IMG/VR virus record: IMGVR_UViG_2541047870_000002
DNA length: 42,586 bases
Source: a virus
Taxonomy: Duplodnaviria; Heunggongvirae; Uroviricota; Caudoviricetes
Strand: one strand, 5' to 3'
Position numbers and translations under genes: made by a program. The notes under the pieces are model-generated. The model was not told where the DNA came from. It was given only the letters and a program-made list of their open reading frames with translations, and searched no databases. The first letter of the stretch is position 1, and each line of letters begins with the position of its first letter. Positions 1 through 41,162 of this stretch are shown here, in pieces.

Positions 1-465
1 TCACTTTGATTCAATTTTGAAACTTTTTTTAACCACTAAAATCATGCAGCTAATCACTTCTGCAATGAGGTTAAGAGATAGCACGATAGCAAAAAGTTCT
101 AAAGCAGTAAATAGCTTGCCTTTAGAAGGGATAAATTCGTGCTGAGGATAATTTACTAGTGGTATGTCATAATTACGTAAATAGGGAAGGAAGATTGTTA
201 CTGCCAGACACATGACCAGTAATTTCAAATCTAATTCTAAACTATCTAAATAGTCCGTAAAGTCTGTGCTTTTCTCGCCCTTATTAATGACAGCCAAAAT
301 TCCGAAGATAACGGAGATACCTGCGGCAATACCTCCAAGTATTGAACCTATTACTCCAGCAGAAGCCTGCTCAAGTAAGGTATAAATGGTTTTATCAGTC
401 GATGCTAATGCTAAGCACAAAAAGAAGGTAGCTATAGCTTTAATCCAGACAGTTAGATTTTGCAT
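1..465 (-). CDS. small multi-pass membrane protein (about 4 predicted TM helices), cargo gene
   Basis: 154-aa ORF with four long hydrophobic stretches; start overlaps upstream gene stop by 26 nt; AT-rich; window begins exactly at its stop codon. Confidence 0.55.
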   Translation of the reverse strand: MQNLTVWIKAIATFFLCLALASTDKTIYTLLEQASAGVIGSILGGIAAGISVIFGILAVINKGEKSTDFTDYLDSLELDLKLLVMCLAVTIFLPYLRNYDIPLVNYPQHEFIPSKGKLFTALELFAIVLSLNLIAEVISCMILVVKKSFKIESK

Positions 466-1336
466 TTTTGAACGTATACCTGTTTTGATGTAATGCTATG
501 ATCTCTTTAATATCATTTGCTGAGTAGCCATCAAGTTCAATTTCTGATATCTCACCTTCGATCAGCACGATTTTGGCTGTCTGATTACTGGATACCGTAG
601 TAGATTTTGACTTGAGTGTCTTACGTCCTTTAATCAACCATGACCCGCCACCATCTTTGACCCAGTCAACAAGAGTCTCAGCCCAATGAGAACCTTTGAG
701 TTTCAAATTGCCATCTTTGTTTTCAAAAATAGTGGTCACAGTATTTGCATTGGTATCTTTTTCAAGCTTCCGTAAATCATTGGTTAACGCTTGCTTACTG
801 CTTCCGAAGATATTCGGAGTAATCAGCGTAAAGCTGACTTTGTCGATAAATTGAAGCCTATGGTATTCTGACCAAAAATCTTCCATTTCAAGACAAGGCT
901 CTATAAATATTCTAAGTCCTAACTGAGCCAAATAGTCGTTATTGGCTAGATCTTCGAACGCTTTAGCAACTTGTTGCGCATCCTTGAAAACAGCGGTTTT
1001 CCTCTCAACCAGTAACACCTGCTCTACTTTGTCCCAAATCCATACGATAGGTGGATAGTTGTCTACATCGTACTCTCGAAAGTCTTTATCATGTCCTTTA
1101 ATCTTTTGCAGCTTTGATATGACTCCAGCCATAACACCATCAGTAGGTTTTATGCTCAATTTCAGGGTGTAACTAGTTTTCTTATGAACGGAAGGTGTTG
1201 ATGACGTCATGTGTAAATTTTTTGCAGCGATAACCATAGCATTTTCAAAATGAGAGATATCTTTCTGAACAGTTCCTTTCGAAAAGAGGTCTGGATCGCG
1301 CGGTCTCATTAACACACGTAAGGCATACAACTGCAT
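440..1336 (-). CDS. hypothetical soluble protein, no recognisable domain; cargo gene coupled to downstream membrane protein
   Basis: 298-aa ORF, AGGAG RBS 8 nt upstream of ATG at 1336; no HExxH, P-loop or other motif seen; AT-rich relative to phage core. Confidence 0.55.
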   Translation of the reverse strand: MQLYALRVLMRPRDPDLFSKGTVQKDISHFENAMVIAAKNLHMTSSTPSVHKKTSYTLKLSIKPTDGVMAGVISKLQKIKGHDKDFREYDVDNYPPIVWIWDKVEQVLLVERKTAVFKDAQQVAKAFEDLANNDYLAQLGLRIFIEPCLEMEDFWSEYHRLQFIDKVSFTLITPNIFGSSKQALTNDLRKLEKDTNANTVTTIFENKDGNLKLKGSHWAETLVDWVKDGGGSWLIKGRKTLKSKSTTVSSNQTAKIVLIEGEISEIELDGYSANDIKEIIALHQNRYTFKNAKSNCLD

Positions 1337-1451
1337 AAGAAAACTCCTGTAAACTATTTGGTTTCATTATTCCATAAAACCAAGCACTTTCAAGAGCTTA
1401 ATTTTCTTTCAATTCTGTATGCATATACAGTATCATTCAATTTTGTAAAAT

Positions 1452-2579
1452 TCAAACCTTGATTTTTGCCCATTCCTTACCACGATCATCATGGTATTTA
1501 GCTGTCTGGTTAGGCGATTTATGTCCCAGAAGTTTTTGGGTGTCGACGCCCTGAGCTTCGTAAAGTCGCTCAGATAAAGATCTTTGTTCATGGAATGTGG
1601 CGGGCGAACCTTCACCCCAGTCAATGCCTGCTAAATCCCTCGCTTTACTGAAATTCATCGTCAATGTATTGGCTTTTACTTGCGCGCCACGTTCAGCCTG
1701 TGAAGTAGTACGAAAAAAATGTACAAGGTATGGGCTGACTGCATAGTCACGGCAGCGGGCTACTACATCGCGTAAACTCCAGTTAATTGCATTGAGGCGA
1801 AGGGAAAGCGGGATGGCGATTTTGCTCCCGGTTTTTTCTTGGATGACGTGAAGATGATCATCCCAAATATCGCTAAATTTCATACGTGAGATATCACCTA
1901 ACCGTTGGCCGGTAACCAGTGCTAACAGCATGGCATTCCCCATATAACGATGGCGGGCATCTGCGATATCAAAGATTTTTTGCCATTCTTCAAGACTTAA
2001 CCGTTGTCGGGTAATTTTTCTTCTGGGTTGTTTGGTTGCCAGTGCTGGATTATAGCCCGGAGGGACTTCCCCATAGTGTTGTGCCTCCTTGAATACATCA
2101 ATTAGAACGGAGCGGACTACTTGCGCCATCCTCGGTTGCCCGGCAGTGATATACTCGTCAAGTAATTGTGCTATATCCCTTACATCAACTGATGAAATTA
2201 ATTTCATTCCTGCTCGTTCCCTGAGCAAGGATACTGGTTTGGCTTTCTGTTTATAGGTGTTTAGCTTTATATCGCCACTTTCCAGTCTGTCATCCTGGAT
2301 TGCTTGATAGCGATCTAACCAGGTTGACGTTGTGATTGCTTTTCCTTTGCTGGTTGCGATCCTGTCACTGATAGCCAGAATCTGCCGGGTTCTTTGCTCA
2401 GCCAGGCGTGAATTTGCCTCAGTGGCAATAGCAATGGCTTCAGCTTCGTTTGTGCCTAAAGAATGAAACTTCCCGGTCACTGGATGTTTATATCGCCAAT
2501 AGACTTTATTTACTTTTCTACTATAAAGCGGATACAAGTTCGGGACTGAAACATTATTTTTACGTGGTCTGGCTGCCAT
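1452..2579 (-). CDS. int: tyrosine site-specific integrase (lambda Int family)
   Basis: 375 aa; C-terminal catalytic region with conserved R, H-x-x-R and Y context (…LLGHKSPNQTAKYHDD…); adjacent excisionase; prophage end position. Confidence 0.9.
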   Translation of the reverse strand: MAARPRKNNVSVPNLYPLYSRKVNKVYWRYKHPVTGKFHSLGTNEAEAIAIATEANSRLAEQRTRQILAISDRIATSKGKAITTSTWLDRYQAIQDDRLESGDIKLNTYKQKAKPVSLLRERAGMKLISSVDVRDIAQLLDEYITAGQPRMAQVVRSVLIDVFKEAQHYGEVPPGYNPALATKQPRRKITRQRLSLEEWQKIFDIADARHRYMGNAMLLALVTGQRLGDISRMKFSDIWDDHLHVIQEKTGSKIAIPLSLRLNAINWSLRDVVARCRDYAVSPYLVHFFRTTSQAERGAQVKANTLTMNFSKARDLAGIDWGEGSPATFHEQRSLSERLYEAQGVDTQKLLGHKSPNQTAKYHDDRGKEWAKIKV

Positions 2580-2805
2580 TACTTAAAATCCTTTGTAGAA
2601 TAATAGAATCATTTTTCTTGATGACAGGAGTAACTAATTCCCCAACTAACTCTGCGTCCTCACGCACTCGCCATAGTCGACCTTGTTTCATTGCCGGTGG
2701 ACAAAATAAATTCTGCTTAGCATAACGACGCAATGTGGACACGCTTGGAGGATTACTTCTGTATTTTTCCGCAGCCCATTCCTCAAGTGTCAGCATTTGA
2801 AGCAT
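2560..2805 (-). CDS. xis: excisionase (Xis-like); start chosen at second ATG with GAGG RBS
   Basis: Small basic protein immediately upstream of and overlapping int start; ORF track 2560..2820. Confidence 0.6.
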   Translation of the reverse strand: MLQMLTLEEWAAEKYRSNPPSVSTLRRYAKQNLFCPPAMKQGRLWRVREDAELVGELVTPVIKKNDSIILQRILSNGSQTT

Positions 2806-2848
2806 TTTTGATAACCTCATTTCTTTTGCTACAAAACTATTTCACTAG

Positions 2849-3397
2849 TTAATTTCGCTGTCTGGATTGTTTATGCATCTTATGCAGCTCTTTAAAGCGT
2901 TCCATAAACATCCCGTAGGCATGGCCCGGTGCCAGTGGAATCACGTTGAACATCTCTGTTGCCGGGATGCCTTCCAGTACAGGCCAGAAAGAGCCATCAT
3001 CAAGCCCGAGATCGCGGCGTTCGGTTGCCAGCATGATGAGATCGGCATATTTCACGGGCGTACTCATAACCGGGGGTAACCCGTATTTCTCACGGATTAC
3101 GGCGTCTATTTTTTCTTCCATCTGTTTATAGTCAGGAAGAAGGCGTTTCAGTGGAGCGGGGATGTCCTGGCAATACGCTTCTGTTGCATCATGCATTAAC
3201 GCTTCAAAAGCAAATTCCTGCGGTACCAGTTGGCTGCAAAGAACCGCATGTTGGGCGACGCTGTAGAAGTGTGAAAGATGTCCTGCAAAGCGACAGATAT
3301 TTGAAAGGGAAACCGCGATATCGTTAATAACGATGTCGTCTTTATTTATCCTGTCATAATAAAAATGCTTCCCAGAAAAAGTTTTAATAAATGACAT
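2849..3397 (-). CDS. HD-domain phosphohydrolase (YfdR-like 5'-deoxynucleotidase family)
   Basis: H…HD motif (AQHAV…LMHDATEAY); start set at internal ATG with GGAGAA RBS (ORF track 2849..3460). Confidence 0.7.
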   Translation of the reverse strand: MSFIKTFSGKHFYYDRINKDDIVINDIAVSLSNICRFAGHLSHFYSVAQHAVLCSQLVPQEFAFEALMHDATEAYCQDIPAPLKRLLPDYKQMEEKIDAVIREKYGLPPVMSTPVKYADLIMLATERRDLGLDDGSFWPVLEGIPATEMFNVIPLAPGHAYGMFMERFKELHKMHKQSRQRN

Positions 3398-3525
3398 TTT
3401 GTTCTCCACGTTATTTGCGCTGCACCGCACTGAATTCTGGTAAAAGGAAGCCCTCACCATCCGGCGATTATTGAGTTAATTACGTTTCCATAAATGCCCC
3501 CGCAGGGGCATTTGCAGTAATCAAA

Positions 3526-4350
3526 TCAGGCGGTGAAAGTACCAATAAAGGTTTCTACTTTGCTGTCTTTGAATTTCTCAACAAGCAGATCGCGAAATTC
3601 GTTAGCCATTTCTTCCTGCACCGCCTCCATCTGAATAATGCGCAGAACAAGTACAGGACGATCGCCAGTGATAATGCTGAGGCGTAATTTAAAAGAACGT
3701 TCTTTCAGACCTTCAAACGGAACGCATTTAAATTCAAATGCCACTGGCATAATGTCTTTGGTCTTCGCTTCGACAGACTCCATCAGGGAGCGTTTGCCGC
3801 TGAAGTCATTATCTTCAAAATCAGCGGTCTGGTTTGCTTCAATCGTGATTTTACGGACAGCCGCAGCCGCTTTTGTTGCCTGGATAGCGTCACCATTAGC
3901 ATCAAAACCCACAAGGTAGTCGGCCCAGTCTTCAATCCATTCTGCCAGTGACTTCTGGGAGTTACGCTCGCTGTTAACAGACAACAGTGCAGAGAACGGT
4001 GCTGTCTTTTTCAGTTTGAGAGTGGCGGTGTTATCTGCGTGACCTGGTTCATCAATAGTACCCAGGTTAAGCACACTGACGGCACGCATATTATCAGCAT
4101 CGATAAAGCAGCGGGTGCCTTCATCTGCAAGATCTTTAGAATAACGGGTAAAGTCATCGATGCTGGCAGTGGAAAGCGCACCACGGAAACGGAAGCGATT
4201 TAAATTAAATTTTTCCAGATCATGAATGCGGAAATTCTCAGGCAATGCCACAGCATCGGCACCAATCTTACTGATAATTTCATTAACACCCTGAGCAGAA
4301 ATAAGAGCATGGATTTGATTAATTGCGGTTGCGTCTAAGTTCTGAGACAT
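3526..4350 (-). CDS. YfdQ-like prophage protein (DUF2303-type), function unknown
   Basis: 274-aa ORF; resembles from memory the CPS-53 prophage YfdQ family; gene order YfdP-like/YfdQ-like/HD hydrolase matches that prophage. Confidence 0.55.
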
Positions 4351-4415
4351 AATAAGTCCTCACTATATAAAGATATTCAGTGATGAGATAAATAATCAGT
4401 TAATTAAGAACGATA

Positions 4416-4778
4416 TTAATGACCTGCTGCGCGGAGTTTTCCGTCAGGTTCACCGGCAAGAGTCAGTAATTGTCCCTGGTCTTCCTGCAGAATAGTCAGG
4501 CGACCACCGCGATTGACATACATCGGCGTTTCGGTGGTGTCTTCTTCAGAAATTTTCCCGCGGTTAGTCGGGCGAACATATGAGAGTTTGTGTTTGATTT
4601 TCACACGGTTCTCATCAAATGGTTCGATTTCCAGGTTGAGTGAGACCTTACCTTTGGTTTTCGTGTTCATCACACCGGAAGCGACTTCACTGAGAACTGC
4701 GCCGATTTTGGTTTCAAATACGCCGCCGTCCAGCTCCCCGATAAATGCCTGCACATCAGTACTGCGTTCGCTAGCCAT
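4416..4778 (-). CDS. hypothetical early protein (YfdP-like), 120 aa
   Basis: Start at internal ATG with GAGGAG RBS; the upstream extension of the 226-aa track ORF is Arg/Cys-rich junk. Confidence 0.5.
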   Translation of the reverse strand: MASERSTDVQAFIGELDGGVFETKIGAVLSEVASGVMNTKTKGKVSLNLEIEPFDENRVKIKHKLSYVRPTNRGKISEEDTTETPMYVNRGGRLTILQEDQGQLLTLAGEPDGKLRAAGH

Positions 4779-4827
4779 TTTGCTGCTCCTCATCATATCG
4801 ACCCTGCAAGGCCGATTAGTTTCTCCA

Positions 4828-4914
4828 CAAAACAGAGAAGAACACCTGCGGTGGCAGCCGCCCGGATGGATTGAGTTATGAGCCCGTCGTCCGGTGATGC
4901 TCTTCTCTGTTTTG
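4828..4914. repeat. long inverted repeat (about 14-16 bp arms, about 55 nt loop) in GC-rich non-coding block
   Basis: caaaacagagaagaac … gctcttctctgttttg are reverse complements; region 4780-5246 lacks a credible ORF. Confidence 0.5.
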
Positions 4915-5179
4915 TAAAAAGGACGGTACCAGCCGGAAGCAAGGGTACAAGCTGGTACCGCCAAGACTACACACAGCATAAAGTTGTGGTGCCGGGTGCC
5001 TCCCGGTGCCTGGCGAAGGTTGCACACCAGGCGGGTGGGTATCCACAGAAGGTCGACTGTCAGCCTCAACCTTAACCCGCGTGCGCTGAGCAGCATTCAC
5101 CACAACGCTAAGGATTCTCTCTGGTTGAAAATACTTAGCTGTTATGTGCCTGCTTTTAGCCACATCAGGCGAGGTGGAC

Positions 5180-5232
5180 CTGGTTATTCCCCAACAACAA
5201 GGATTCGGTTAATCTGGTTATCCCCAACAACG
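5180..5232. promoter_or_regulatory. two direct repeats CTGGTTAT(T)CCCCAACAAC spaced 34 bp, immediately upstream of the 144-aa gene
   Basis: Near-identical 18/19-mers at 5180-5199 and 5214-5232; RBS and ATG of 5247 gene follow. Confidence 0.45.
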
Positions 5233-5246
5233 CAAAAGGAAAAGAA

Positions 5247-5681
5247 ATGTCCGGTAATATCTACACGTTGTACAAATCCCACTGTGAAAATGTTGGAAAG
5301 TATCGGGGCATTGAAATCAGTGGGATAGTGTCATCAGTCGAAATAAGCAAAGTGGAATCAAGGGCAACATTACTTACTCTTCTGGATCTTGTCTTACATG
5401 AGCACCGGAAGAAATTCGGCACTCCCTATAATCAGTTGAATGGGAAAAAGGCTCTGGTTCACCTTATTCTGATGAAGCATCACTGGATGCCAAAACAGAT
5501 TAATGAGATGAAATTTGATGAACTTCTTCTTTCAATTCAGGATGAACTCACACTTGATAAAATAAGCGTAACCGCCCAGAAATTTTTAGATTATCGAGAC
5601 TGGAGATCACAAATTCATCACTTTGATGATTTTGACGAAAATGAATGGGATCCTAATTTGTCTGCACAATATCTAAAGTAA
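5247..5681 (+). CDS. hypothetical protein (reverse-oriented moron within the leftward early operon)
   Basis: 144-aa ORF with AAGGA RBS; AT-rich; no recognisable motif. Confidence 0.5.
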   Translation: MSGNIYTLYKSHCENVGKYRGIEISGIVSSVEISKVESRATLLTLLDLVLHEHRKKFGTPYNQLNGKKALVHLILMKHHWMPKQINEMKFDELLLSIQDELTLDKISVTAQKFLDYRDWRSQIHHFDDFDENEWDPNLSAQYLK

Positions 5682-5859
5682 CATCCTGTGATAAAACCGT
5701 GATTTCCTGATCCAGTTTTTTTAAGGAGTCTATTGTTTCCTGTCGATAAGACAGCACTTCACGAAGCTGGTTTATAGCTGCCAGCTTCTTTGTCATCCAC
5801 TCATAAATTTCCTCATCTGTGTAGCCAGGCGCGACGATTTTGGGTTCTGTTTTGTGCAT
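5653..5859 (-). CDS. small acidic protein, first gene of leftward early operon (N-position)
   Basis: Strong RBS GAGGAGGTG 5 nt before ATG at 5859; 68 aa; no arginine-rich motif; 3' end overlaps the convergent 144-aa gene. Confidence 0.5.
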   Translation of the reverse strand: MHKTEPKIVAPGYTDEEIYEWMTKKLAAINQLREVLSYRQETIDSLKKLDQEITVLSQDVTLDIVQTN

Positions 5860-5904
5860 TTCACACCTCCTCAAGTTATCAGTTACTTGTTGATGGGGAC
5901 CAGA

Positions 5905-5942
5905 TTGTTAAAGAGCTAAGCGTCCTGTAGGGCGCTTTTTTG
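5905..5942 (-). promoter_or_regulatory. boxA-like element (GCTCTTTAACAA on minus strand) with adjacent hairpin: candidate nutL; the same hairpin plus T6 reads as an intrinsic terminator on the plus strand
   Basis: Minus-strand RNA would read …GCGCCCUACAGGACGCUUAGCUCUUUAACAA…; hairpin 5919-5936 followed by TTTTTT on plus strand. Confidence 0.4.
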
Positions 5943-6016
5943 TTGCTAACGAATCATCCTGGACTTCATATGCCCCAGGCGGCTACTTCGTGGGTGTCCT
6001 GCCTGTTCGTTGTCTT

Positions 6017-6080
6017 AACACCTTTAAGTTGTAATTTAGTTGTGGTTTTGAATGTTGTCAACAACTTTATGTGGTTTGAA
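6017..6080. promoter_or_regulatory. left operator cluster (OL-like): repeated AAGTTGT / ACAACTT half-sites
   Basis: Motifs cacctttaagttgt, tagttgtgg, caacaactttatgtgg are near-identical to motifs in the cI-cro intergenic region. Confidence 0.5.
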
Positions 6081-6124
6081 CGAGTAGCCAAGGAGTGCAA
6101 GGATTATCAAAAAAAGGAGGTTGT

Positions 6125-7015
6125 ATGGAAGACGCGCTTTACGCTTTTAATTACACACAGAACCGGGACAAGTTATTTGCTAACTTGATTAGCATCATTG
6201 ATGGAATCATTGCAGATGGAGTTGTCCGTGAAGAGGAGGTTCTTTACTTAGATACATGGTTACTTGAAGCAAAGCAGATTATCAATAATGGAGTTATAAA
6301 AAGTCTATCTGCTCGGGTGTCGGATATTCTTGCGGATGGAATAATCACATCAGAAGAACGTGATGACCTTAAAAATAGCCTTCTCCAAATACAGAGGGAA
6401 ATTCTTGATATCCCTGAAATTGATTTTTACTCCAAGGATGTAGATGTCCATTTACTTAATGGACTATGTAAAGGATTAATTGCTGATCGGAACTTAACTC
6501 AAGAAGAAATAAGATATCTTAATTGGTGGCTTGAGCAAAATGGAGCTTTGAAGAACAACTACCCAGGAAAAAAACTTTATGCACTTGTAAAGGAAATTCT
6601 TAAAGATGGTGTTATTACTGAAGATGAGAGTTTAACTCTACATAAGGCATTAGTAGACTTCACAGGATGTGACTTGGAAAGTGGGGTGGTGGATGGTTTG
6701 GCGACCAGGCTGCCTATTGATGTAGGGGCTTCGATAGAGTTAGAGGGTAAAACCTATTGTCTTACAGGCACTTTTGTTGCAGGAAAGAGAGCCGTAGTTG
6801 AAAATTTGATTAAAAATGCTGGTGGGAACATCAGTAGTGGAATTACTCAAAAGTTGGATTTTTTAGTAATTGGGACGCTTTCCTCCCGTGATTGGAAATT
6901 CTCTAGTCACGGAAGGAAGATCGAAAAGGCTATATCTTATAGGGATGATAATGGTGCAAAACTTAAAATTATTTCTGAAGAAATGCTTTTCGATGCATTA
7001 CCAAGTTCGCGATGA
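6125..7015 (+). CDS. TerB-like tandem repeat protein with C-terminal BRCT domain (immunity-region moron)
   Basis: Four repeats of the ADGxIxxEExxxL type in the N-terminal two thirds; C-terminal …GKTYCLTGTFVAGKRAVVENLIKNAGGNISSGITQKLDFLVIG… resembles the LigA-type BRCT fold; AGGAGG RBS before ATG at 6125 (ORF track starts at GTG 6095). Confidence 0.55.
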   Translation: MEDALYAFNYTQNRDKLFANLISIIDGIIADGVVREEEVLYLDTWLLEAKQIINNGVIKSLSARVSDILADGIITSEERDDLKNSLLQIQREILDIPEIDFYSKDVDVHLLNGLCKGLIADRNLTQEEIRYLNWWLEQNGALKNNYPGKKLYALVKEILKDGVITEDESLTLHKALVDFTGCDLESGVVDGLATRLPIDVGASIELEGKTYCLTGTFVAGKRAVVENLIKNAGGNISSGITQKLDFLVIGTLSSRDWKFSSHGRKIEKAISYRDDNGAKLKIISEEMLFDALPSSR

Positions 7016-7684
7016 CCAGAATACCCTACCTATAACATGAATTCTGGCTCGTCTATCTTCAAAGGTGAGTATTTCATCTGGGTACTCATCTTTGTTGAAG
7101 CTTCTAAGAATCAAGCCACCGTCAGGTAAGTTGATAAGTATTTTAACCCTTAGCAATACACCATCTCGTACGGCATAAAGATCGCCATCACGAATAGGAA
7201 CGGTTTGAGAAATATCAACGGCAACAAGATCTCCATTATTGAGAACCGGTAATAAACTGTTCCCCCATATTTGTACGATCTTGGCATTAGATGCACATAC
7301 GCCAGATTTTCTCAAATCTGCTCTTCTTAACGGAAACCAGTCAATAGCTGATTCAACTATTTCAGCCAGACATCCGTTACCTGCCGATAACTCGACATCT
7401 AAAACAGGAATGTTTACGAAAATATCGGGGTCTAATGCGGTGCTTTCTGCTTCTTTTACAACAAGATCAGGTATGGATGCGTTGTCTTCAATACCAAGTT
7501 GTAACCACTTTTGTGATACACCTAAAACTTTTGCAATTTCTTTAATTTTGCGCGGTTGTAGAGTTTCGCCATTCTCTATTTTGGCTACAGATTGTTGTGA
7601 AAGTCCAATTTTTTCAGCTAGTTGAGCTTGGCTCATGCCAGCTTTCTCTCTACCTATCTTTAATCGTTCTGCCAGTGTTTTCAC
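6998..7684 (-). CDS. cI: CI-like prophage repressor (N-terminal HTH_XRE, C-terminal S24/LexA-like self-cleaving peptidase)
   Basis: HTH …MSQAQLAEKIGLSQQSVAKIENG…; C-terminal peptidase-like domain; GTG start with GAGGG RBS; divergent from cro. Confidence 0.85.
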   Translation of the reverse strand: MKTLAERLKIGREKAGMSQAQLAEKIGLSQQSVAKIENGETLQPRKIKEIAKVLGVSQKWLQLGIEDNASIPDLVVKEAESTALDPDIFVNIPVLDVELSAGNGCLAEIVESAIDWFPLRRADLRKSGVCASNAKIVQIWGNSLLPVLNNGDLVAVDISQTVPIRDGDLYAVRDGVLLRVKILINLPDGGLILRSFNKDEYPDEILTFEDRRARIHVIGRVFWSSRTW

Positions 7685-7710
7685 AACATATCCCTCTCTT
7701 TTTTGATGAG

Positions 7711-7800
7711 GTTACAACTTTATGTTTTAGCTTTCCAACACCTAAAAGTTGTGGTAAAAGTTGTTAATGTTGTATTCTTGCAGCTCGTAACAACTTAACT
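7711..7800. promoter_or_regulatory. right operator cluster (OR-like) with divergent promoters for cI and cro
   Basis: Repeats ttacaactttatg, cacctaaaagttgtgg, aaagttgttaatgttg, cgtaacaactta between cI and cro starts. Confidence 0.55.
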
Positions 7801-7819
7801 ACCAAAAAAGGAGAAAGCT

Positions 7820-8068
7820 ATGACACCTGAGCAATTAGCCTTATCGGAGGCAATCGCTCTGGCTGGTGGTCAATCAGAATTGGCTCGGAAGCTCACAGCC
7901 AGCAGCGGTCATTTAGTAAAGCAACAACATGTCTGGAACTGGTTGAACAGAGAAAAGCGTCCCCCTGCAAAGCTCTCGATATTCATTGAAAAGACCACTG
8001 GCATATCAAAAGAAAAATTACGTCCAGATATTTTTCAAAAGATTAAAGATTCATCAGATGAAAAGTAA
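7820..8068 (+). CDS. cro: Cro-like HTH regulator
   Basis: 82-aa ORF divergent from cI, AAGGAG RBS, small basic HTH protein. Confidence 0.65.
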   Translation: MTPEQLALSEAIALAGGQSELARKLTASSGHLVKQQHVWNWLNREKRPPAKLSIFIEKTTGISKEKLRPDIFQKIKDSSDEK

Positions 8069-8090
8069 CCACAGTTTTAAGGAGATAGCC

Positions 8091-8648
8091 GTGGGTAAGC
8101 ATCACTGGAAAATAGAAAAACAGCCTGAGTGGTACGTGAAAGCTGTCAGAAAAACTATCGCGGCGTTGCCGGGGGGTTACGCTGAAGCCGCTGACTGGCT
8201 GGATGTAACAGAGAACGCTTTATTCAACCGCCTTCGTGCAGATGGCGATCAGATTTTCCCGCTGGGATGGGCAATGGTTTTACAGCGTGCTGGTGGCACT
8301 CACTTCATTGCTGATGCTGTGGCGCAGTCTGCAAATGGCGTCTTTGTGTCTCTTCCTGACGTCGAGGATGTGGACAACGCCGATATTAACCAGCGTCTGC
8401 TGGAAGTCATTGAACAGATCGGCAGTTATTCAAAACAGATTCGTTCAGCAATCGAAGACGGTGTAGTGGAACCGCATGAGAAGACAGCAATTAACGACGA
8501 GCTGTATCTCTCAATTTCGAAGCTGCAGGAACATGCAGCACTTGTCTACAAAATTTTTTGCATTTCAGAAAGTAATGACGCCCGCGAGTGTGCAGCTCCG
8601 GGCGTCGTGGCGTCGATTGCTTCTGGTTGTGGAGAAACTAACGCATGA
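8091..8648 (+). CDS. CII-position regulatory protein (YmfL-like), function uncertain
   Basis: GTG start with AAGGAG RBS just after cro (ORF track 7986..8648); position equivalent to cII. Confidence 0.4.
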
Positions 8649-8983
8649 ACAGTTTAACAACACACTACCGTCGCTCGCAACTGATTGCGCTTCCTTTACC
8701 GGGTGGAAAAGCGAAGGTGGAGTATTGCTATGCAGTGAATGTACCAGGTGACAGGGAAATTGTAACCCACAGCTTTGCAGAGTGGGCTGTGGGTGATTTC
8801 AACCGGCAGAAGGAGACAGTCCTTTGCGACAAGTTAACCGCTGGTTCAAAGATCACTACGGAGTGCCCGTCAGAGTCATTCGTTGGGAACCGGAAACACA
8901 ACGGGTTATCTACCTTCGCGAAGGTTATGAGCATGAATGCTTCAGTCCGCTCGAACAGTTTCGTCGTAAATTCAGGGAAATAG
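8645..8983 (+). CDS. hypothetical protein (YmfM-like size and position)
   Basis: 112-aa ORF with ATGA start-stop overlap with upstream gene; an alternative small ORF with strong RBS exists in another frame at about 8824..9003. Confidence 0.35.
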
Positions 8984-8992
8984 AGGTCGGTC

Positions 8993-9934
8993 ATGAGCAC
9001 TAAATTAACCGGCTATGTATGGGATGGTTGCGCTGCATCAGGCATGAAGTTATCCAGCGTGGCAATTATGGCCCGCCTGGCTGATTTCAGTAATGACGAA
9101 GGTGTGTGCTGGCCATCAATTGAAACCATTGCCCGTCAGATTGGCGCGGGGATGAGTACCGTCAGAACGGCTATCGCACGGCTGGAAGCAGAAGGCTGGT
9201 TAACGCGTAAGGCGCGTCGCCAGGGTAACCGTAATGCGTCGAATGTTTATCAGCTTAACGTTGCGAAGCTTCAGGCAGCGGCATTTTCTCAACTGTCAGA
9301 TTCTGACCCGTCAAAATCTGACGCATCAAAATCTGACCCGTCAAAATTTGATGCGTCGAAATCTGGCAAAAAAGCGGGTTTTCACCCGTCAGAATCTGGC
9401 GGGGATCCGTCAGTAAAATCAAAACATGATCCGTCAGATAAAAAATCTTCTCGTCCGGACGCTTCGCAACCGGACACGCAGACGGATGGACAGGATTTTT
9501 TAACTCGCCATCCTGATGCGGTTGTATTCAGCCCTAAAAAGCGCCAGTGGGGGACGCAGGATGATTTGACCTGCGCACAGTGGCTTTGGAAAAAAATCAT
9601 CGCCCTGTACGAGCAGGCCGCCGAATGTGACGGCGAGGTGGTTCGTCCCAAAGAACCTAACTGGACAGCCTGGGCAAACGAAATTCGCCTGATGTGTGTG
9701 CAGGATGGTCGTACTCACAAACAAATCTGCGAGATGTACAGCCGCGTCAGCCGCGATCCGTTCTGGTGCCGTAACGTGCTCAGCCCGTCGAAGCTGCGGG
9801 AAAAATGGGATGAGCTTTCCCTGCGCTTATCGCCGTCCGTAAGCACGTACACCGAAAAACGCGAAGACCCGTACTTCAAATCCAGTTACGACAACGTGGA
9901 CTACAGCCAGATCCCGGCAGGATTCAGGGGGTGA
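8993..9934 (+). CDS. replication initiation protein (O-like; N-terminal winged-helix domain, low-complexity linker, C-terminal DnaT-like domain)
   Basis: N-terminal HTH-like segment; Ser/Asp/Lys-rich linker encoded by tandem DNA repeats; position after cro/cII. Confidence 0.65.
   Translation: MSTKLTGYVWDGCAASGMKLSSVAIMARLADFSNDEGVCWPSIETIARQIGAGMSTVRTAIARLEAEGWLTRKARRQGNRNASNVYQLNVAKLQAAAFSQLSDSDPSKSDASKSDPSKFDASKSGKKAGFHPSESGGDPSVKSKHDPSDKKSSRPDASQPDTQTDGQDFLTRHPDAVVFSPKKRQWGTQDDLTCAQWLWKKIIALYEQAAECDGEVVRPKEPNWTAWANEIRLMCVQDGRTHKQICEMYSRVSRDPFWCRNVLSPSKLREKWDELSLRLSPSVSTYTEKREDPYFKSSYDNVDYSQIPAGFRG
9296..9445 (+). repeat. iteron-like tandem repeats (about 15-bp period, core TCA(A/G)AATCTG) followed by A-rich tract: putative replication origin inside the O-like gene
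   Basis: Five contiguous 15-bp units at 9296-9370 plus three further CCGTCAG-type copies and aaaaaatc tract. Confidence 0.5.
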
Positions 9935-11954: not shown

Positions 11955-12950
11955 GTGACCGTGAGAGCACTACTGACCCCTGAAATTGCCCCGCGTATGG
12001 GGATCGTATTGTTCAGGCCAGGTTCAGAGCTGATGCCCCTGTTTATGCAGGGGCGTGTCCTGCTGGAGCCTGAGCCGGAGCGTTATTCATCTTTCGCCAG
12101 TGGTGCCGTTCCGGCGGCATCACAACCGCTGGCGGATGATCCTGCCGTTCGGGCCGTGTTCCGCAATGAGGCAGTGATCCGTCGTGCTGGTGGCGTGGAA
12201 TGTCTTGAAAGCTGGTTACTTCGTGAAAAAGGCTGCCAGTGGCCTCATTCCAACTGGCACAGCGAGAACATGACCACAATGCGACACGCGCCTGGCGCAA
12301 TCCGTCTGTGCTGGCACTGCGATAACCAACTGCGCGATCAGTTCACGGAACGGCTGGAATCAATGGCAACGGATAACTGTGCCCGCTGGGTGTTGTCTGT
12401 TGTGCGTCGGGATCTCGGTTTTGATGATAGTCACGTTGTGACAATGCCGGAACTGTGCTGGTGGCTGGTTCGTAATGATCTGGCGGATGCCTTACCGGAA
12501 AGCGCAGCCCGTAAGGCACTGAGATTACCGAAGCCTGTTGTGCCGTCTGTCACCCGGGAAAGTGACCTTGTGCCTTCGGTTCCAGCCACCAGCATCATGC
12601 AGGATAAAGCGAAAAAGGTGCTGGCGCTGAAAGTGGAGCCGGAGTCGCCGGAGTCTTTTATGTTACGCCCCAAACGTCGCCGCTGGGTTAATGAAAAGTA
12701 CACGCGCTGGGTTAAGACACAGCCGTGTGCATGTTGTGGAAAGCCTGCTGATGATCCCCACCACCTGATAGGCCACGGTCAGGGGGGAATGAGTACAAAA
12801 GCGCATGACCTCTTTGTGTTGCCTTTGTGCAGAAAGCATCACGACGAGCTGCATGCGGATACCGTGGCATTTGAAGAGAAGTATGGCTCCCAGCTGGAGC
12901 TGATATTTCGTTTTATCGACCGTGTGTTGGCAATTGGTGTGCTAGCCTGA
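11955..12950 (+). CDS. DUF968-like protein with C-terminal Cys/His nuclease-like motif
   Basis: C-terminal CACCGK…HHLIGHGQGG…CRKHHDELH cluster; GTG start. Confidence 0.45.
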   Translation: MTVRALLTPEIAPRMGIVLFRPGSELMPLFMQGRVLLEPEPERYSSFASGAVPAASQPLADDPAVRAVFRNEAVIRRAGGVECLESWLLREKGCQWPHSNWHSENMTTMRHAPGAIRLCWHCDNQLRDQFTERLESMATDNCARWVLSVVRRDLGFDDSHVVTMPELCWWLVRNDLADALPESAARKALRLPKPVVPSVTRESDLVPSVPATSIMQDKAKKVLALKVEPESPESFMLRPKRRRWVNEKYTRWVKTQPCACCGKPADDPHHLIGHGQGGMSTKAHDLFVLPLCRKHHDELHADTVAFEEKYGSQLELIFRFIDRVLAIGVLA

Positions 12951-12964
12951 TTTGGTGGAGAAAG

Positions 12965-13333
12965 TTGATGCGTGATATTCAGATGGTTCTGGAGCGTTGG
13001 GGGGCATGGGCGGCGAGTGATAGTTCAGGCGTTGATTATTCACCTATAGCCGCTGGGTTTAAGGGACTTCTTCCCTATACAAGCAAGAAACGCTTGGCTT
13101 GTTCGGATAGTGATGCCTTAATTATTGAAGGTTGTCTTGCTCGTCTAAAGCAAAAAAGGCCGGACGAACATTCGCTTCTTGTTGCCCATTACCTATACGG
13201 TATCTCTAAAAGAAAGCTCGCCAAGGCTCGTAAAAAAGATGAGAAATTGATACGTATAGAAATACAGCTAGCCGAAGGATTTATTGATGGCTGCCTTTCC
13301 ATGCTAGATCTAACATTAGATTTGGACGTTTAA
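12965..13333 (+). CDS. Q: late-gene antiterminator Q (QuuD-like small Q family)
   Basis: N-terminus MRDIQMVLERWGAWAA matches from memory the DLP12 QuuD family; located just upstream of the lysis region. Confidence 0.7.
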   Translation: MMRDIQMVLERWGAWAASDSSGVDYSPIAAGFKGLLPYTSKKRLACSDSDALIIEGCLARLKQKRPDEHSLLVAHYLYGISKRKLAKARKKDEKLIRIEIQLAEGFIDGCLSMLDLTLDLDV

Positions 13334-13334
13334 T

Positions 13335-13359
13335 AATACGCCCCTGCATGGGGCGTATT
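13335..13359. terminator. perfect 10-bp hairpin (AATACGCCCC/GGGGCGTATT) between convergent Q and NTPase genes; likely bidirectional terminator
   Basis: Inverted repeat with 5-nt loop, flanked by T/A-rich sequence on both sides. Confidence 0.5.
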
Positions 13360-13361
13360 AT

Positions 13362-14693
13362 TTACTGGATGAGTGACATTTGATTAATATATTTTATCAA
13401 TAACTCTCTGGGTGTAGTACTCCAAAAATTTATGTGTTCATAATCAGTATAAACATTTGTGAATTTTTTAAGTTCTTCATCACTTTTAGGGGCAAATCGC
13501 TCATTAAGAGTAATACTGTCTTTAATTATTCCGAAGAATACAATGGATATTTCAGGGATTTGCGATCTTCTCTCATAAGAATAAGGTATTTCTTTTATGT
13601 TAAGCAGGTCTGCTAAATAAGATATAGATTCAGCGGTAATTTCTTGTTTTAGTTTTTCCTTGTTACCAAAGCAATGTATGAAGGCAGCTACGACAAAGAT
13701 CATATTTATTAAAGGATCACTGCTTTTGTTCTCATCGTCGTTTAACAGTTGAAAAATGTTAAGATTGCGTGAAAATGTTTGTGTTTCACGTAATGATAAG
13801 TTGGTTCGTTGAATTAAATCACGGATAAAGCAACCTGATAATCTATTGATTTTATTCAATAATCTTGTTTTTTCTACAAGGTAATCCCAATATATAACAG
13901 AGGCTTTACATACGTTGTGACCATTTATCAAACATGTATCTGGAAGCGTGATGGTATATTTTATAAACTTGTCAAGATACTTTTGTGAGTTAATGCTATA
14001 ACCATAAATATGATTTATAGATGCTTTTAATTGTTCTGTGTTTGTAACTAAAATAAAAAAGACATTATTGATGTCAAAAATGTGTTTTATTGTTTCAATG
14101 ACATTTGTTGAAAAACTCGGCTTACATCGGTCTAATTCATCAATTATAATTACGATTTTTTGATTTTTTGATATGCTTTCGATGCAGGATTTAAGTGAAT
14201 TTATGTTTTTCTCTGAGTCCATATGGTCTTCAAGCAAATTTTCAATAGTCCCATCTATTGCTGCATTGCTTGCTTTCTTCATCGCATCTTGGAATTCTTC
14301 GGCAACTTCACTAGCCTCCTGTCGTAAAAACCAACCTGCACCAGCTTTTAGTACCGTTTTTAAACCAAAGCGAATTGCAGGAAGAGATCGCTTAATGAAG
14401 TGTTGTTTTTCTTCCTCAGGCAAAATGCTGGCAATTGCAGAGGTTATGAGAAGTAATGGAGATTCTGCATGATCCCCTTTAAAGGCATCAATATAAACAA
14501 CTTTAGATTCAGTTTCTTGCTCAATAATGAGATTTTTCAGTTTGATACTAAATTCTGTTTTCCCTGTTCCCCATGCGCCGTCTATTACCAGTGGTGAAAT
14601 GTCTGCCTCTGGTTTTAGCAACTTGATGATATTTTCAGCGATGTTTCTTCGTTGGAACTCGTCACGTTCAGTGAAAGATAGTGTATCTAACAT
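13362..14693 (-). CDS. KAP-family P-loop NTPase (moron between Q and late promoter)
   Basis: Walker A LVIDGAWGTGKT and Walker B IIIDELDRC (the DELDR/DDLDR form typical of KAP NTPases); very AT-rich; reverse orientation. Confidence 0.65.
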   Translation of the reverse strand: MLDTLSFTERDEFQRRNIAENIIKLLKPEADISPLVIDGAWGTGKTEFSIKLKNLIIEQETESKVVYIDAFKGDHAESPLLLITSAIASILPEEEKQHFIKRSLPAIRFGLKTVLKAGAGWFLRQEASEVAEEFQDAMKKASNAAIDGTIENLLEDHMDSEKNINSLKSCIESISKNQKIVIIIDELDRCKPSFSTNVIETIKHIFDINNVFFILVTNTEQLKASINHIYGYSINSQKYLDKFIKYTITLPDTCLINGHNVCKASVIYWDYLVEKTRLLNKINRLSGCFIRDLIQRTNLSLRETQTFSRNLNIFQLLNDDENKSSDPLINMIFVVAAFIHCFGNKEKLKQEITAESISYLADLLNIKEIPYSYERRSQIPEISIVFFGIIKDSITLNERFAPKSDEELKKFTNVYTDYEHINFWSTTPRELLIKYINQMSLIQ

Positions 14694-14754
14694 AATATAA
14701 ACCTATTAACTCCTACAGTAAAAAACGAATAATACGACTTTGGGATTAAAAATC

Positions 14755-14790
14755 ATTAACGCGGTCCGCAAAAATTCTTGTAATCTGTTA
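14755..14790 (+). promoter_or_regulatory. candidate late promoter (pR'-like), weak assignment
   Basis: TTAACG, 17 bp, TGTAAT upstream of a strong terminator and the holin gene. Confidence 0.25.
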
Positions 14791-14815
14791 AGAGTGGTTA
14801 CTTCGCCACACAGCT

Positions 14816-14846
14816 TAAACCCGCCGTCGAGCGGGTTTTGTCGTTT
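14816..14846 (+). terminator. intrinsic terminator (tR'-like) upstream of lysis genes; Q would need to read through it
   Basis: Perfect 8-bp stem AAACCCGC/GCGGGTTT, 6-nt loop, followed by TTTTGTCGTTTC. Confidence 0.55.
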
Positions 14847-14990
14847 CTGGGCTTTGGTATTCGTTGGGCTTGGTCTATCTAGCTCTTATCCATTGGCTCG
14901 GCTTCTTTTACGTTTCCGCTTCTGATTTGCGGTTCGTGGTACTCCCTCAATTTGCACCTCTTGTATCGGCGAGGTGAGAGATAACTACAA

Positions 14991-15317
14991 ATGCCTCATA
15001 ACCCAAATACCTGGCTGGAGTTGGTCCAGAGCTGGTGGCGTGGAGACACACCGCTGGGCGCAGTGATTATGTCGATTGTTATGGCTGGTTTACGTATCGC
15101 CTATTTTGGCGGTGGTGGCGGTTGGAAGCGAAAAACACTCGAAATTCTACTCTGTGGCGCTCTGACGCTGACTTTTGCATCCGCTCTTGAGTATGTCGGA
15201 TGGCCTAAATCACTATCTGTTGCCATTGGTGGTGGGGTGGGGCTGATCGGTGTCGATGCTATTCGTGGGGCTGCAATGCGAGTAATCGGTAACAAATTTG
15301 GTGGCTCTAAGGAGTAA
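14991..15317 (+). CDS. holin
   Basis: 108 aa with three hydrophobic segments and charged C-terminus, immediately upstream of endolysin. Confidence 0.7.
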   Translation: MPHNPNTWLELVQSWWRGDTPLGAVIMSIVMAGLRIAYFGGGGGWKRKTLEILLCGALTLTFASALEYVGWPKSLSVAIGGGVGLIGVDAIRGAAMRVIGNKFGGSKE

Positions 15318-36553: not shown

Positions 36554-37621
36554 TTAATGAAATTTATCTCGGATGAATTGTTGCGATGGTTTTTCAATAA
36601 ATATATATGACATATAGCTAATTGCCATTAATGTAAGCATGAATAAAATGAATACCTTGGGGCTGTAAAAAAGATCGCGTCCATAGCCAATCTTGTCAGC
36701 TAAATAAACAACAATGATTTGCAAAGGAAAATGTAAAAGATAAGATGAATAACTGATATCGCCCAACCATTCAATTTTTTTCCCAAAATCGTTTCGTATT
36801 GCGCTAATTGATACAAGGAAAAAGATTATGGAGGTAAATCCGAATAAGATAATTGAGAATATATCTGCTACTTGCAGGGTAAAGATAACTCCCCATGAGA
36901 TCAATAGAAAAACACAAGCAAAAATAAAAAATAACTTTGCGCTAATATTATTTATGGCCGCAATCGTAATTTTATAAGTCAGACCACCAATAAAGAAAGA
37001 GAATGCGCCGATCATTATGGGATTGTTAATTTTGAAAAAGTAGTACGACAATGCAACTATTAAAATTGATATGAATGTTGTTTTTGATGTGAACTTGCAT
37101 AATATAAAAAATATCATGTACATAAGTACTTCAATCGACACGGACCATGTCGGGGCGTTGAAGGACCAACCTCGCTCAAATCCCCATGATTGAATCATCA
37201 ATAAATTCAGAATGGCATGGTAAATGTCATTCATAGGATAAACAAAAAAATAATTATGACTTTTAAAGAAAATAATTTGTAATATTGCCACGGCAGCAAA
37301 TGTAAATATATAAAGTGGATATAATCTACTGACACGGTTAACTATAAAAGTTTTTGCTGAGGTTTTATTGCTGTGTATATTGTCAGCGTATAGATAAAAA
37401 AATATGAATCCAGAAATCATAAAAAACAATTCGACAGCATATAAACCGTAATGATAAAAGACGGAAAAAAAATCATAAAAAGGTTGGCGGTTTATGATTA
37501 TGTCAGATGCAGCATTCTTTTTCATAAAAAAATGTTGCCAATGCCATAACACAACGGAAAGTGCGGCAAATCCTCTCAGAACATCCAGGGTATATATTCT
37601 CTTCCCAAAAACATTCGTCAC
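36554..37621 (-). CDS. acyltransferase family 3 integral membrane protein (O-antigen/LPS acetyltransferase-like), lysogenic conversion candidate
   Basis: 355 aa, about 10 TM helices, N-terminal motif …LDVLRGFAALSVVLWHW… typical of OafA/Oac-type acyltransferases; very AT-rich; reverse orientation. Confidence 0.8.
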   Translation of the reverse strand: MTNVFGKRIYTLDVLRGFAALSVVLWHWQHFFMKKNAASDIIINRQPFYDFFSVFYHYGLYAVELFFMISGFIFFYLYADNIHSNKTSAKTFIVNRVSRLYPLYIFTFAAVAILQIIFFKSHNYFFVYPMNDIYHAILNLLMIQSWGFERGWSFNAPTWSVSIEVLMYMIFFILCKFTSKTTFISILIVALSYYFFKINNPIMIGAFSFFIGGLTYKITIAAINNISAKLFFIFACVFLLISWGVIFTLQVADIFSIILFGFTSIIFFLVSISAIRNDFGKKIEWLGDISYSSYLLHFPLQIIVVYLADKIGYGRDLFYSPKVFILFMLTLMAISYMSYIFIEKPSQQFIRDKFH

Positions 37622-37984: not shown

Positions 37985-38851
37985 CTAAGCGAGGTTCTGG
38001 TTTTCAAATTGTTCCGGACTGAGGCCGCCACACCAACTGTGCCGCCGCCACCGATTGTAATCACATTCGATATAATTAAACACCGTTGCCCGCATTATTT
38101 CCCGGCTGATAAAGTGTTCTCCATGGATACATTCCACTTTCAGCGAATGAAAGAAGCTTTCCACGCAGGCATTATCGTAGCAGCAACCTTTTGCGCTCAT
38201 ACTTCCACGCAGATTATGCCGCTTCAGTTGCGCCTGATAATCTGCTGAACAGTACTGGCCTCCACGGTCCGTGTGAACGATAACGTTCCGGGGCCTCTTA
38301 CGCCGCCACAGCGCCATCTGCAGGGCATCGCAGGCCAGTTGCGCCGTCATGCGTGGCGACATTGACCAGCCAATAACGGCACGTGACCACAGGTCAATGA
38401 CCACTGCCAGATACAGCCAGCCTTCATCTGTACGTAAGTACGTGATGTCTCCTGCCCACTTCTGGTTCGGGCCACTGGCGTAAAAATCCTGCTCCAACAG
38501 ATTTTCTGACACAGGCAGGCCGTGTGCGCGGTAGCTGACCGGGCTGAACTTCCGGGAGGCCTTTGCCCTCAGTCCCTGACGGCGCAGGCTTGCCGCCACG
38601 GTTTTTACGTTAAAGGGGTAACCCTGAGCACGCAGTTCATCCGTCAGGCGTGGGGCACCGTAACGCTGTTTTGACCGGGTAAAAGCCGCGAGGACAACGC
38701 TGTCGCAGTGTTGGCGGAACTGCTGACGCGTGCTTATCCTTGTCCGCCGCTGACACCACGTATACCAGCCGCTGCGGGCCACCCGGAGCACGCGGCACAT
38801 TGCTTTGATGCTGAACTCAGCCTGATGTTTTTCAATAAAGACATACTTCAT
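37985..38851 (-). CDS. insF: IS3 transposase OrfB (DDE integrase domain)
   Basis: 288 aa, recognised IS3 transposase sequence. Confidence 0.9.
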
Positions 38852-39432: not shown

Positions 39433-40209
<777 letters not shown>

Positions 40210-40910
40210 CTATTGTCTGTGAATTATTTGTCTGGCATATGTTAATGAATGTTTTGAGGATTCACAACCAATAGTATGGGCTAACGTCATCCTACATTTG
40301 AGGTGGCCAAAAATAAGCAATTTTTAGTAGGCACGAAGTTGAGCACCATCGCCCATTCATATCTGTGTGTAAGTTGTATCAGACAGAGTCTGAACTAATG
40401 AAATAGAATTAATCCCATATTGTTACTAATCGAACAGTTATTCTGAGATGTTACATTGTAACGAGGGTATATCGTTGGGTATGCCTGAGGTATTGCACAC
40501 CATTAGACCTACGGCGAACTTCCCCTGTCTCCAGACGTTGCTGATACTAAAGATAACGGTGCTGCATTTTATCAGAATTGCCATAGAGAATTGCATTATA
40601 GTAAAAATGAGAAAGAACTAATTGAGATGCATTGCGTTAATATAAACCGATTACAGAAATAAAATTGTTTATTAAAGTCACATTTAAGATGTAATACCCT
40701 ACTTGGTAAAAATTTTCTCTGATCATAATTTCTGCAAATATTAATTGCTATTTTTATGCTAAAAGTGGTTATCAAAACTCAAAAACACATGTTGATAATC
40801 AATGAGTTAGGGAGATGCTAAGAGCTAATGAGTTATATGCAAGTTAGTAAAATTATGTTGCTATATCAAATAGTTGAGAATTAATCATCTAACTAATGTT
40901 ACGCCATATG

Positions 40911-41060
40911 GGTTGGACTGAAGCGGCTGACCTGATTGTTAAAGGTATGGAAGGCGCAATCAATGCCAAGACCGTAACCTATGACTTCGAACGTCTGATG
41001 GAAGGCGCTAAATTGCTGAAATGTTCAGAGTTTGGTGACGCGATCATCAAGAATATGTAA
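40911..41060 (+). pseudogene. icd: 3'-terminal fragment of isocitrate dehydrogenase gene (icd'), marks the attR junction
   Basis: Translates to [49 protein letters not shown]-stop, recognised as the Icd C-terminus; no upstream icd sequence. Confidence 0.8.
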
Positions 41061-41082
41061 TCTCTCCATGTGTTAAATATTG

Positions 41083-41116
41083 AAACGGGCGTATAACACG
41101 CCCGTTGTTTTATTTA
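41083..41116 (+). terminator. intrinsic terminator following the icd fragment
   Basis: Stem AACGGGCGT/ACGCCCGTT, 5-nt loop, then GTTTTATTT. Confidence 0.6.
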
Positions 41117-41162
41117 TGTGGATATTATTAATAGCATATCGAGCATATTTATATAAAACCCT

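Follow-up and report, generated by a model that had tools for sequence, protein, structure and literature searches.

A reverse-strand KAP-family NTPase gene of the PDC-S20 candidate family between Q and the late-promoter-like module of a lambdoid prophage

The window analyzed here, a stretch of 42,586 nucleotides from a virus of the Caudoviricetes (IMG/VR record IMGVR_UViG_2541047870_000002), contains a gene for a KAP-family P-loop NTPase that separates the antiterminator gene Q from a late-promoter-like module. A preliminary description, made from the sequence alone, had placed a reverse-strand and strongly AT-rich reading frame at this site, and both points were borne out. The frame occupies 13362..14693 on the minus strand, starts with ATG and encodes 443 amino acids. 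Its GC content is 33% (0.330; GC3 0.279), compared to about 51% in the flanking DNA (0.526 and 0.505 in the 5 kb on each side). The features of the locus are the following:

12965..13333, plus strand: antiterminator Q of the PF06530 type, a distant relative of Q21 that bounds the cargo slot on the left.
13332..13362, no strand assigned: bidirectional terminator-like hairpin with a 13-bp stem (AATAATACGCCCC/GGGGCGTATTATT) between the convergent genes Q and KAP.
13334..14747, no strand assigned: AT-rich cargo cassette of 1,414 bp, missing from empty-site relatives.
13362..14693, minus strand: KAP-family P-loop NTPase, 443 aa, member of PDC-S20 and of phrog_8614.
13365..13733, minus strand: codons for aa 321-443, a fast-evolving, all-helical C-terminal domain and proposed specificity or sensor region.
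14319..14396, minus strand: codons for aa 100-125 (LPAIRFGLKTVLKAGAGWFLRQ), among the most conserved blocks, in the helical insert between Walker A and Walker B.
14694..14747, minus strand: 5' region of the KAP gene, cassette-specific and conserved only in part with Citrobacter.
14748..14846, plus strand: late-promoter-like module with a tR'-like intrinsic terminator (stem 14817-14838) and the candidate -10 hexamer TAATCT at 14781-14786.
14991..15317, plus strand: lambda-family holin, the first late gene (Pfam Phage_holin_3_1, E 5.7e-25).

The gene on the left of the slot is indeed Q, as had been proposed, since it matches Pfam Phage_antitermQ (PF06530) with an E value of 1.8e-52; against the PDB it gives a weak match to Q21 (6jnx/6p18). 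On the right, the holin gene is followed by an ORF of 158 aa without a Pfam match, which PGAP annotates in an identical segment as a GH104 glycoside hydrolase of the endolysin type, and by a further ORF of the lysis region. The window is collinear with E. coli strain CFSAN064035 within 12900-15100 only. The prophage of that strain is integrated at tRNA-Thr beside proA. This integration site was rejected for the window, because its left arm encodes an intE-type integrase together with ymfK and ymfL and no tRNA gene is found in the window.

The cassette has a GC content of 0.332 and consists of the hairpin abutting the Q stop codon, the reverse KAP gene and 54 bp of 5' sequence. In an alignment with phage PhiR49_2 the homology ends at the 3' end of Q and restarts at 14748, and positions 14748-14839 of the window are 88% identical to the sequence that directly follows Q in this phage. 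In PhiR49_2 and in several E. coli genomes the site is empty, with the module lying within about 20 bp of Q. The earlier suggestion of a moron inserted between Q and the late promoter agrees with this comparison: measured against phages with an empty site, the 1,414-bp cassette has been inserted. The hairpin between Q and KAP folds with -22.1 kcal/mol on one strand (z -5.6) and with -20.8 kcal/mol on the other (z -5.3). It belongs to the cassette and not to the empty site, and comparable hairpins abut Q in cdtI and DLP12. Of the features by which a moron is recognized, we thus saw the insertion, the deviant GC content and an own terminator hairpin; a dedicated promoter did not rise above chance. 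A promoter scan of the region returned 9 consensus matches, compared to 6.7 +/- 2.7 expected from shuffled controls, and hence no excess. One -10-like site ending at 14694 was ruled out as promoter of the KAP gene because it abuts the ATG, and an Rfam scan of 13250-15050 gave a sub-threshold chance match only. DNA of 33% GC is the kind typically silenced by H-NS in E. coli. The KAP gene has this composition and no promoter stands out above chance, so that its expression in the lysogen is only presumed. The gene would then be expressed on its own, independent of the late operon.

The region beyond the cassette had been described as a candidate late promoter with a tR'-like terminator (14755-14846). 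A terminator scan revealed the hairpin at 14817-14838 followed by a T-run, and the module around it is conserved in cdtI, in Citrobacter and, for its downstream half, in DLP12. The terminator stem of Citrobacter has a different sequence and yet the pairing is kept, which supports a real tR'-like terminator in the module. While this part of the description holds, the promoter remains a candidate, with a -10 hexamer that comes from alignments read by eye and whose positions 2 (A) and 6 (T) are the same in every version.

In other prophages the slot between Q and the module carries different cargo, always on the strand opposite to Q, and in some prophages it is empty. The cargo includes a TIR protein of 271 aa (PADLOC TIR-TM, E 1.7e-57), an SDH/ClpP-like serine proteinase of 331 aa, and a DUF6731 protein combined with a protein of 147-149 aa (phage cdtI, strain EC-14-2-9). 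PADLOC gave no match for the two-gene cargo of the cdtI type or for the SDH proteinase. The porin gene nmpC was also said to occupy this slot, and the K-12 prophage DLP12 confirms it with the order quuD, hairpin, reverse nmpC with IS5, downstream half of the module and essD. The nmpC locus therefore shares with the KAP locus the slot, the reverse orientation of the cargo and the succession Q, hairpin, cargo, module and holin; it differs in that the cargo is a porin instead of an ATPase and in the upstream half of the module. The same had been claimed for stx, and here the description has to be corrected. In Stx phages, the Q-modified polymerase reads stx, which has the orientation of the late operon and is found downstream of pR'/tR'. 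In PhiR49_2, too, the genes characteristic of the stx region, namely those for a methylase and for tRNA, come after the module. The stx slot is thus a different one, located downstream of the module. Because the slot-mates of the KAP gene include the nmpC porin and proteins without defence annotation, the position in this slot is no proof of a defence function, and a literature search for a Q-adjacent defence hotspot returned nothing specific. As a recurrent reverse-strand slot, the junction from Q to the late promoter would offer an easy starting point in searches for new cargo genes of prophages.

We then turned to the protein itself. Both Walker motifs named in the preliminary description are found in the translation, Walker A (GAWGTGKT) at aa 39-46 and Walker B (IDELDRC) at aa 184-190, the latter as part of IIIDELDRC (aa 182-190). 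G39, W41-K45 and D185-C190 are invariant across 51 homologues. KAP-family membership, for which a profile search and a PADLOC search had been suggested as checks, is clear from both. Pfam KAP_NTPase (PF07693) matches with E 8.9e-71 and 239 bits at a cut-off of 20 bits; the domain spans aa 15-317 and covers model positions 1-292 of 293. Consequently, the C-terminal part without a motif, given before as 250 aa, is reduced to about 125 residues. The PADLOC model PDLC04956 of PDC-S20 matches over the full length (E 1e-176, 587 bits, residues 3-442 against model positions 4-449 of 450), and the other three PDC-S20 models give matches as well. PHROGs places the protein in phrog_8614, a family without functional annotation, and PGAP labels the identical protein in the identical E. 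coli segment as 'KAP family NTPase', a label that is also used in the top-listed complete genomes. A PDB sequence search with the KAP protein gave no match. PDC-S20 is one of 145 phage defence candidates (Payne et al., bioRxiv 10.1101/2024.01.29.577857) and owes its nomination to 'guilt by embedding', as BREX, DISARM or type I RM loci enclose members of the family. The contexts sampled here are prophage slots, in contrast to the RM and BREX loci behind the nomination. Size (about 445 aa) and single-gene layout are common to the family and our protein. Judged by its profile matches, the KAP protein is a member of PDC-S20, and nothing at the sequence level sets it apart from the family. No paper naming PDC-S20 turned up in the literature collection that was searched.

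Relatives of the KAP protein are numerous. A word-index search yielded 2,195 matches at E <= 1e-5, mostly of 440-447 aa and from Enterobacterales, and an exhaustive search gave 264 clusters (50% identity) at E <= 1e-30 and 9,962 at E <= 1e-3. Among 50,697 sequenced phage records, tblastn detected no close relative. The whole segment from Q over KAP to the holin gene is present at 98-100% identity in about 50 of 5,426 complete E. coli genomes; in one E. coli genome the KAP copy is interrupted by IS903B. An orthologue in Citrobacter (66% identical) is intact and occupies the same site; it converges on a Q with 79% identity to that of the window, lies about 55 bp from the same module and has different lysis genes downstream. 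The orthologue of Salmonella Typhimurium has 92% identity and belongs to a cluster of 2,139 sequences with a Salmonella Typhimurium representative. It is intact and retains the order DUF968, Q, KAP and holin within a decayed prophage remnant, where an NEL/LRR effector gene and an acyltransferase gene are its neighbours. As in the window, a single ORF lies between Q and the late module in Citrobacter and Salmonella.

More distant homologues (about 45% identity; E. coli, Serratia, Yersinia) belong to P2/186-like prophages, where the genes for the CI repressor and the integrase flank them on the same strand. This arrangement is the layout of a lysogenic operon. An ORF of 160-169 aa precedes the KAP gene in some of these contexts, not in all. 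The scanned homologues at 44-66% identity match PDC-S20 at E 1e-172 to 1e-182. The CI-integrase interval of P2 belongs to a minor defence hotspot listed for P2, and the Pfam domains on record for P2 and P4 elements include KAP_NTPase. A position next to cI and int would also suit a role in lysogeny. The KAP protein could accordingly serve lysogenic conversion or prophage maintenance, for instance as an ATPase with a regulatory effect on prophage stability, induction or host physiology, or it could form part of an addiction-type module. The nmpC porin and similar non-defence cargo of the slot would be in line with such a function, and so would the persistence of the gene in the decayed Salmonella remnant beside a virulence-effector gene. 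We regard it as improbable, however, because the PADLOC and NCBIfam matches of the protein are defence-related only (PDC-S20, PifA and QatA), a fast-evolving C-terminus such as it has is typical of arms-race proteins, and, with a single ORF in the cassette, there is no toxin-antitoxin partner.

Comparison with the Salmonella orthologue gave a dN/dS of 0.14 overall; the ratio is 0.11 within aa 1-320 and rises to 0.40 within aa 321-443. The overall value, together with the intact Citrobacter orthologue in the same slot, argues for sustained selection on the KAP gene. It also bears on the idea that the gene is a hitchhiker, silenced by H-NS or otherwise unexpressed, that has no present function in the host. 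The GC content of 33%, the lack of a promoter above chance and the copy disrupted by IS903B would be expected for such baggage; purifying selection, the Citrobacter orthologues that stayed intact in the same slot at 66% identity and the presence of the gene in about 50 complete E. coli genomes at 98-100% identity make this very hard to believe.

In an alignment of 51 sequences, residues 1-260 and 301-320 are conserved, and residues 261-300 and 321-443 are highly variable. Within the conserved parts lie Walker A and B, an N-terminal RDE motif and, in the lid, an LSLRE motif. Entropy is high in the C-terminal part. In the conserved block of aa 100-125 it amounts to 0.97 (aa 101-120), and P105, A106, K116 and L123 are invariant. 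An AlphaFold (AF2) model of the protein reached a pLDDT of 81 and a pTM of 0.78, with low confidence at residues 113-128 (pLDDT 41-45) and 142-157, both in the helical insert of about 100 residues between Walker A and B. For aa 100-125, strong conservation in the family contrasts with a poor placement in the model. According to Foldseek, the closest solved fold is that of RdrA (8hr8, 8fnu, 8fnt; E 1e-6 to 5e-4), at low TM-scores of 0.37-0.47 and 12-16% identity, and ATPases of the ORC/Cdc6 type are similar as well. A search for transmembrane helices in the KAP protein found none (maximum 19-residue Kyte-Doolittle value 1.53). No nuclease, TIR, protease, pore or other effector domain was recognized in it, and no DNA- or RNA-binding domain.

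Taken together, we consider it fairly probable that the KAP gene is horizontally acquired, single-gene anti-phage defence cargo that is expressed in the lysogen. This reading is based on the antisense insertion of foreign composition with its own terminator, on a slot in which other prophages have a TIR-TM defence protein, and on the position of relatives in a lysogenic operon of an unrelated phage lineage. It is furthermore based on purifying selection combined with a fast-evolving C-terminus, on the intact state of the gene in the decayed Salmonella remnant, on membership in the candidate family PDC-S20 and a fold closest to a defence ATPase, and on the anti-phage activity of other KAP NTPases (PifA, EF_KAP, the metagenomic KAPs and Reve). 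The evidence is circumstantial, and the low TM-scores to RdrA, the missing close relatives in phage records, the non-defence slot-mates, the lack of a recognizable effector domain and the absence of a promoter signal above chance in AT-rich DNA that may be silenced count against a defence function.

As a defence protein, the KAP gene product would be a soluble KAP/AAA+-like NTPase of three parts, namely a core with lid (aa 15-317), a helical-hairpin insert and a helical C-terminal domain. The variable C-terminal region may recognize a protein of the infecting phage. Recognition might then lead to NTP-dependent oligomerization or to a conformational switch of the core, by analogy to the ring-forming RdrA and to ORC/Cdc6, and this switch would block the infection. 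Since the protein has no nuclease, TIR, protease or pore domain, the output would have to come from the ATPase itself or from the conserved insert. One possible output, which we suggest with little confidence, is a PifA-like action at the inner membrane; it is a guess because neither an effector domain nor a transmembrane helix is recognizable. A still more speculative and rather doubtful proposal joins both levels of the analysis. PDC-S20 would represent a minimal KAP defence protein, in which a hypervariable helical C-terminal domain senses phage proteins and the conserved hairpin insert (aa ~93-142, where other KAPs are described to have membrane helices) provides the output, and the Q/late-promoter junction would be a dedicated reverse-strand hotspot at which lambdoid prophages exchange defence genes (KAP, TIR-TM and others). 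If the KAP gene is active, it would validate a widespread candidate family (about 264 clusters at 50% identity, E <= 1e-30). With sensing and output both confined to about 440 residues, this very small KAP ATPase would then also be a handy model for phage blocking by KAP proteins.

Among the known systems, PifA had been named as the relevant KAP protein. PifA accounts for the exclusion of phage T7 by the F plasmid, and abortive infection is triggered by T7 gp1.2 or gp10. The link holds for the ATPase domain only. The PifA model matches aa 7-252 of the KAP protein (E 6.3e-18), revealing a common KAP-type P-loop domain, but the alignment is confined to model positions 13-255 of 720, and the large C-terminal part of PifA is missing from our protein. 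An orthologue of PifA was rejected on this ground. PifA is encoded in the pif operon of the F plasmid and the KAP protein in a prophage; both are single proteins on a mobile element and have no transmembrane helices, a feature typical of many KAPs that PifA lacks (PMC13001434). QatA was rejected as well, because the NCBIfam match of 34 bits stands against a cut-off of 600 bits and is partial (aa 125-246), the PADLOC match to QatA is partial too, and the neighbours are Q and holin instead of qatBCD. RdrA of RADAR is a ring-forming defence ATPase and the best match of the KAP protein among solved structures, but with about 800-850 aa it is much larger than our 443-aa protein. An RdrA orthologue was rejected, as there is no adjacent RdrB deaminase gene and no PADLOC match to RdrA at E <= 1.

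Experimentally active KAP proteins are also known from other elements. EF_KAP and three metagenomic KAPs have anti-phage activity that requires Walker B, and the protection by EF_KAP is equal at an MOI of 1 and 10 (PMC12632615). These observations raise the possibility, which we hold only tentatively, that the KAP protein defends without killing or arresting the cell, through direct binding or remodelling of a phage replication or assembly component as reported for EF_KAP. This would be a sub-variant of the defence explanation and no separate alternative. It would suit a protein without membrane segment and toxic effector domain, and a fold of the ORC/Cdc6/RdrA kind is typically found where a protein loads onto a nucleic acid or onto a protein partner. 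However, no DNA- or RNA-binding domain is recognized in the KAP protein, and EF_KAP is set apart by its description, with N-terminal transmembrane helices and a C-terminal region of 322 aa that are both missing here (PMC12632615). Reve (586 aa) is a single-gene KAP defence from P4 satellite hotspots that is active in experiments (bioRxiv 10.64898/2026.02.27.708500). We compared its ORF, taken from the supplementary sequences of that work, and rejected it as a member of the same family: only the neighbourhoods of Walker A and B are shared (blastp E 0.009 over 27 residues around Walker A), and Reve matches PDC-S49 of PADLOC and not PDC-S20. None of the active KAP proteins PifA, EF_KAP, metagenomic KAPs and Reve is an orthologue of the KAP protein. 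The gene described here is a KAP NTPase defence candidate of a kind already catalogued as PDC-S20 and no new type of system. With Reve and EF_KAP, single-gene KAP-domain defences on mobile elements, it has in common this setting and a C-terminal region without known fold.

Where the conserved late module follows the antiterminator gene Q, the junction is a recurring slot for reverse-strand cargo, in the window as well as in three other prophages (L011, L012 and L013), phage cdtI (L002) and the K-12 prophage DLP12 (L022). Depending on the prophage, the slot is empty or contains the KAP gene, the nmpC porin, a TIR-TM protein, an SDH/ClpP-like proteinase, or a DUF6731 protein together with a small protein. 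A description of this junction as a hotspot was not found in the literature searched.

Slot cargo:
window 13334-14747, reverse, KAP cassette
L011 1075-1890, reverse, cargo of another prophage
L012 1236-2231, reverse, cargo of another prophage
L013 1070-2482, reverse, cargo of another prophage
L002 1955-3343, reverse, cargo of phage cdtI
L022 1024-3880, reverse, cargo of DLP12, with nmpC

Immediately 3' of the Q stop codon we found a GC-rich hairpin, which is a different one for each cargo type (window 13332-13362 for the KAP cassette, about 1935-1960 in cdtI and about 1065-1085 in DLP12). A terminator that separates the cargo from rightward read-through seems to be either brought along by the cargo or favoured by selection. 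At the other border of the slot, the late module falls into two halves. The upstream half, with the palindrome GCGGTCCGC, is kept only beside PF06530-type Q genes (window 14748-14790 versus DLP12 3860-3905), while the downstream half, comprising GTTAAGAGTGGTTACTTCGCCACACAGC and the terminator, is kept also in DLP12, beside quuD. This suggests that one part of the late module is specific to Q and the other is shared.

KAP homologues were also present in P2-like prophages of Serratia and Yersinia, where the CI repressor and the KAP gene are separated by an ORF of 160-169 aa without a Pfam match.

ORF beside KAP in these prophages:
L016 7470-7970
L017 7461-7970
L019 7494-7976

The ORF is missing from the lambdoid KAP contexts and from some of the E. 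coli P2-like ones, and could be an optional KAP partner or a separate cargo gene. The Salmonella Typhimurium orthologue (region L014 5375-11428) is intact, with 92% identity, in a decayed prophage remnant, and is adjoined by genes for a NEL/LRR effector and an Acyl_transf_3/SGNH protein. Its cluster contains 2,139 sequences, so Salmonella expression or fitness datasets already published may include it. Of the about 50 KAP genes in E. coli genomes, one, in strain SZQ1 (NZ_CP173996.1), is interrupted by IS903B.

The left arm (window 1-9000) is a mosaic and carries an intE-type integrase, yfdQ and ymfK/ymfL regulators, with GC dips to 0.375-0.41 at 1-1000 and 6001-8000. Coverage of at least 80% of this arm is reached by a single complete E. 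coli genome, and none of the complete-genome set carries the whole prophage exactly as in the window. Further AT-rich cargo lies past the tail-fibre genes.

Right end of the window:
36554-37621, reverse, Acyl_transf_3 acyltransferase
37985-38851, reverse, IS3-type transposase (rve)
39433-40206, reverse, LEM-3-like GIY-YIG protein
40000-42586, stretch of 31-37% GC with small ORFs of no assigned function (41163-41486; 42182-42586, the latter extending beyond the window edge)

Within the KAP protein itself, the block LPAIRFGLKTVLKAGAGWFLRQ (aa 100-125; window 14319-14396) is one of the family's best-conserved stretches. Despite this high conservation, its pLDDT in the AlphaFold model is about 41-45. 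The block lies within the insert that separates Walker A from Walker B and may serve for interaction or output. In other KAPs, membrane helices have been described in this insert.
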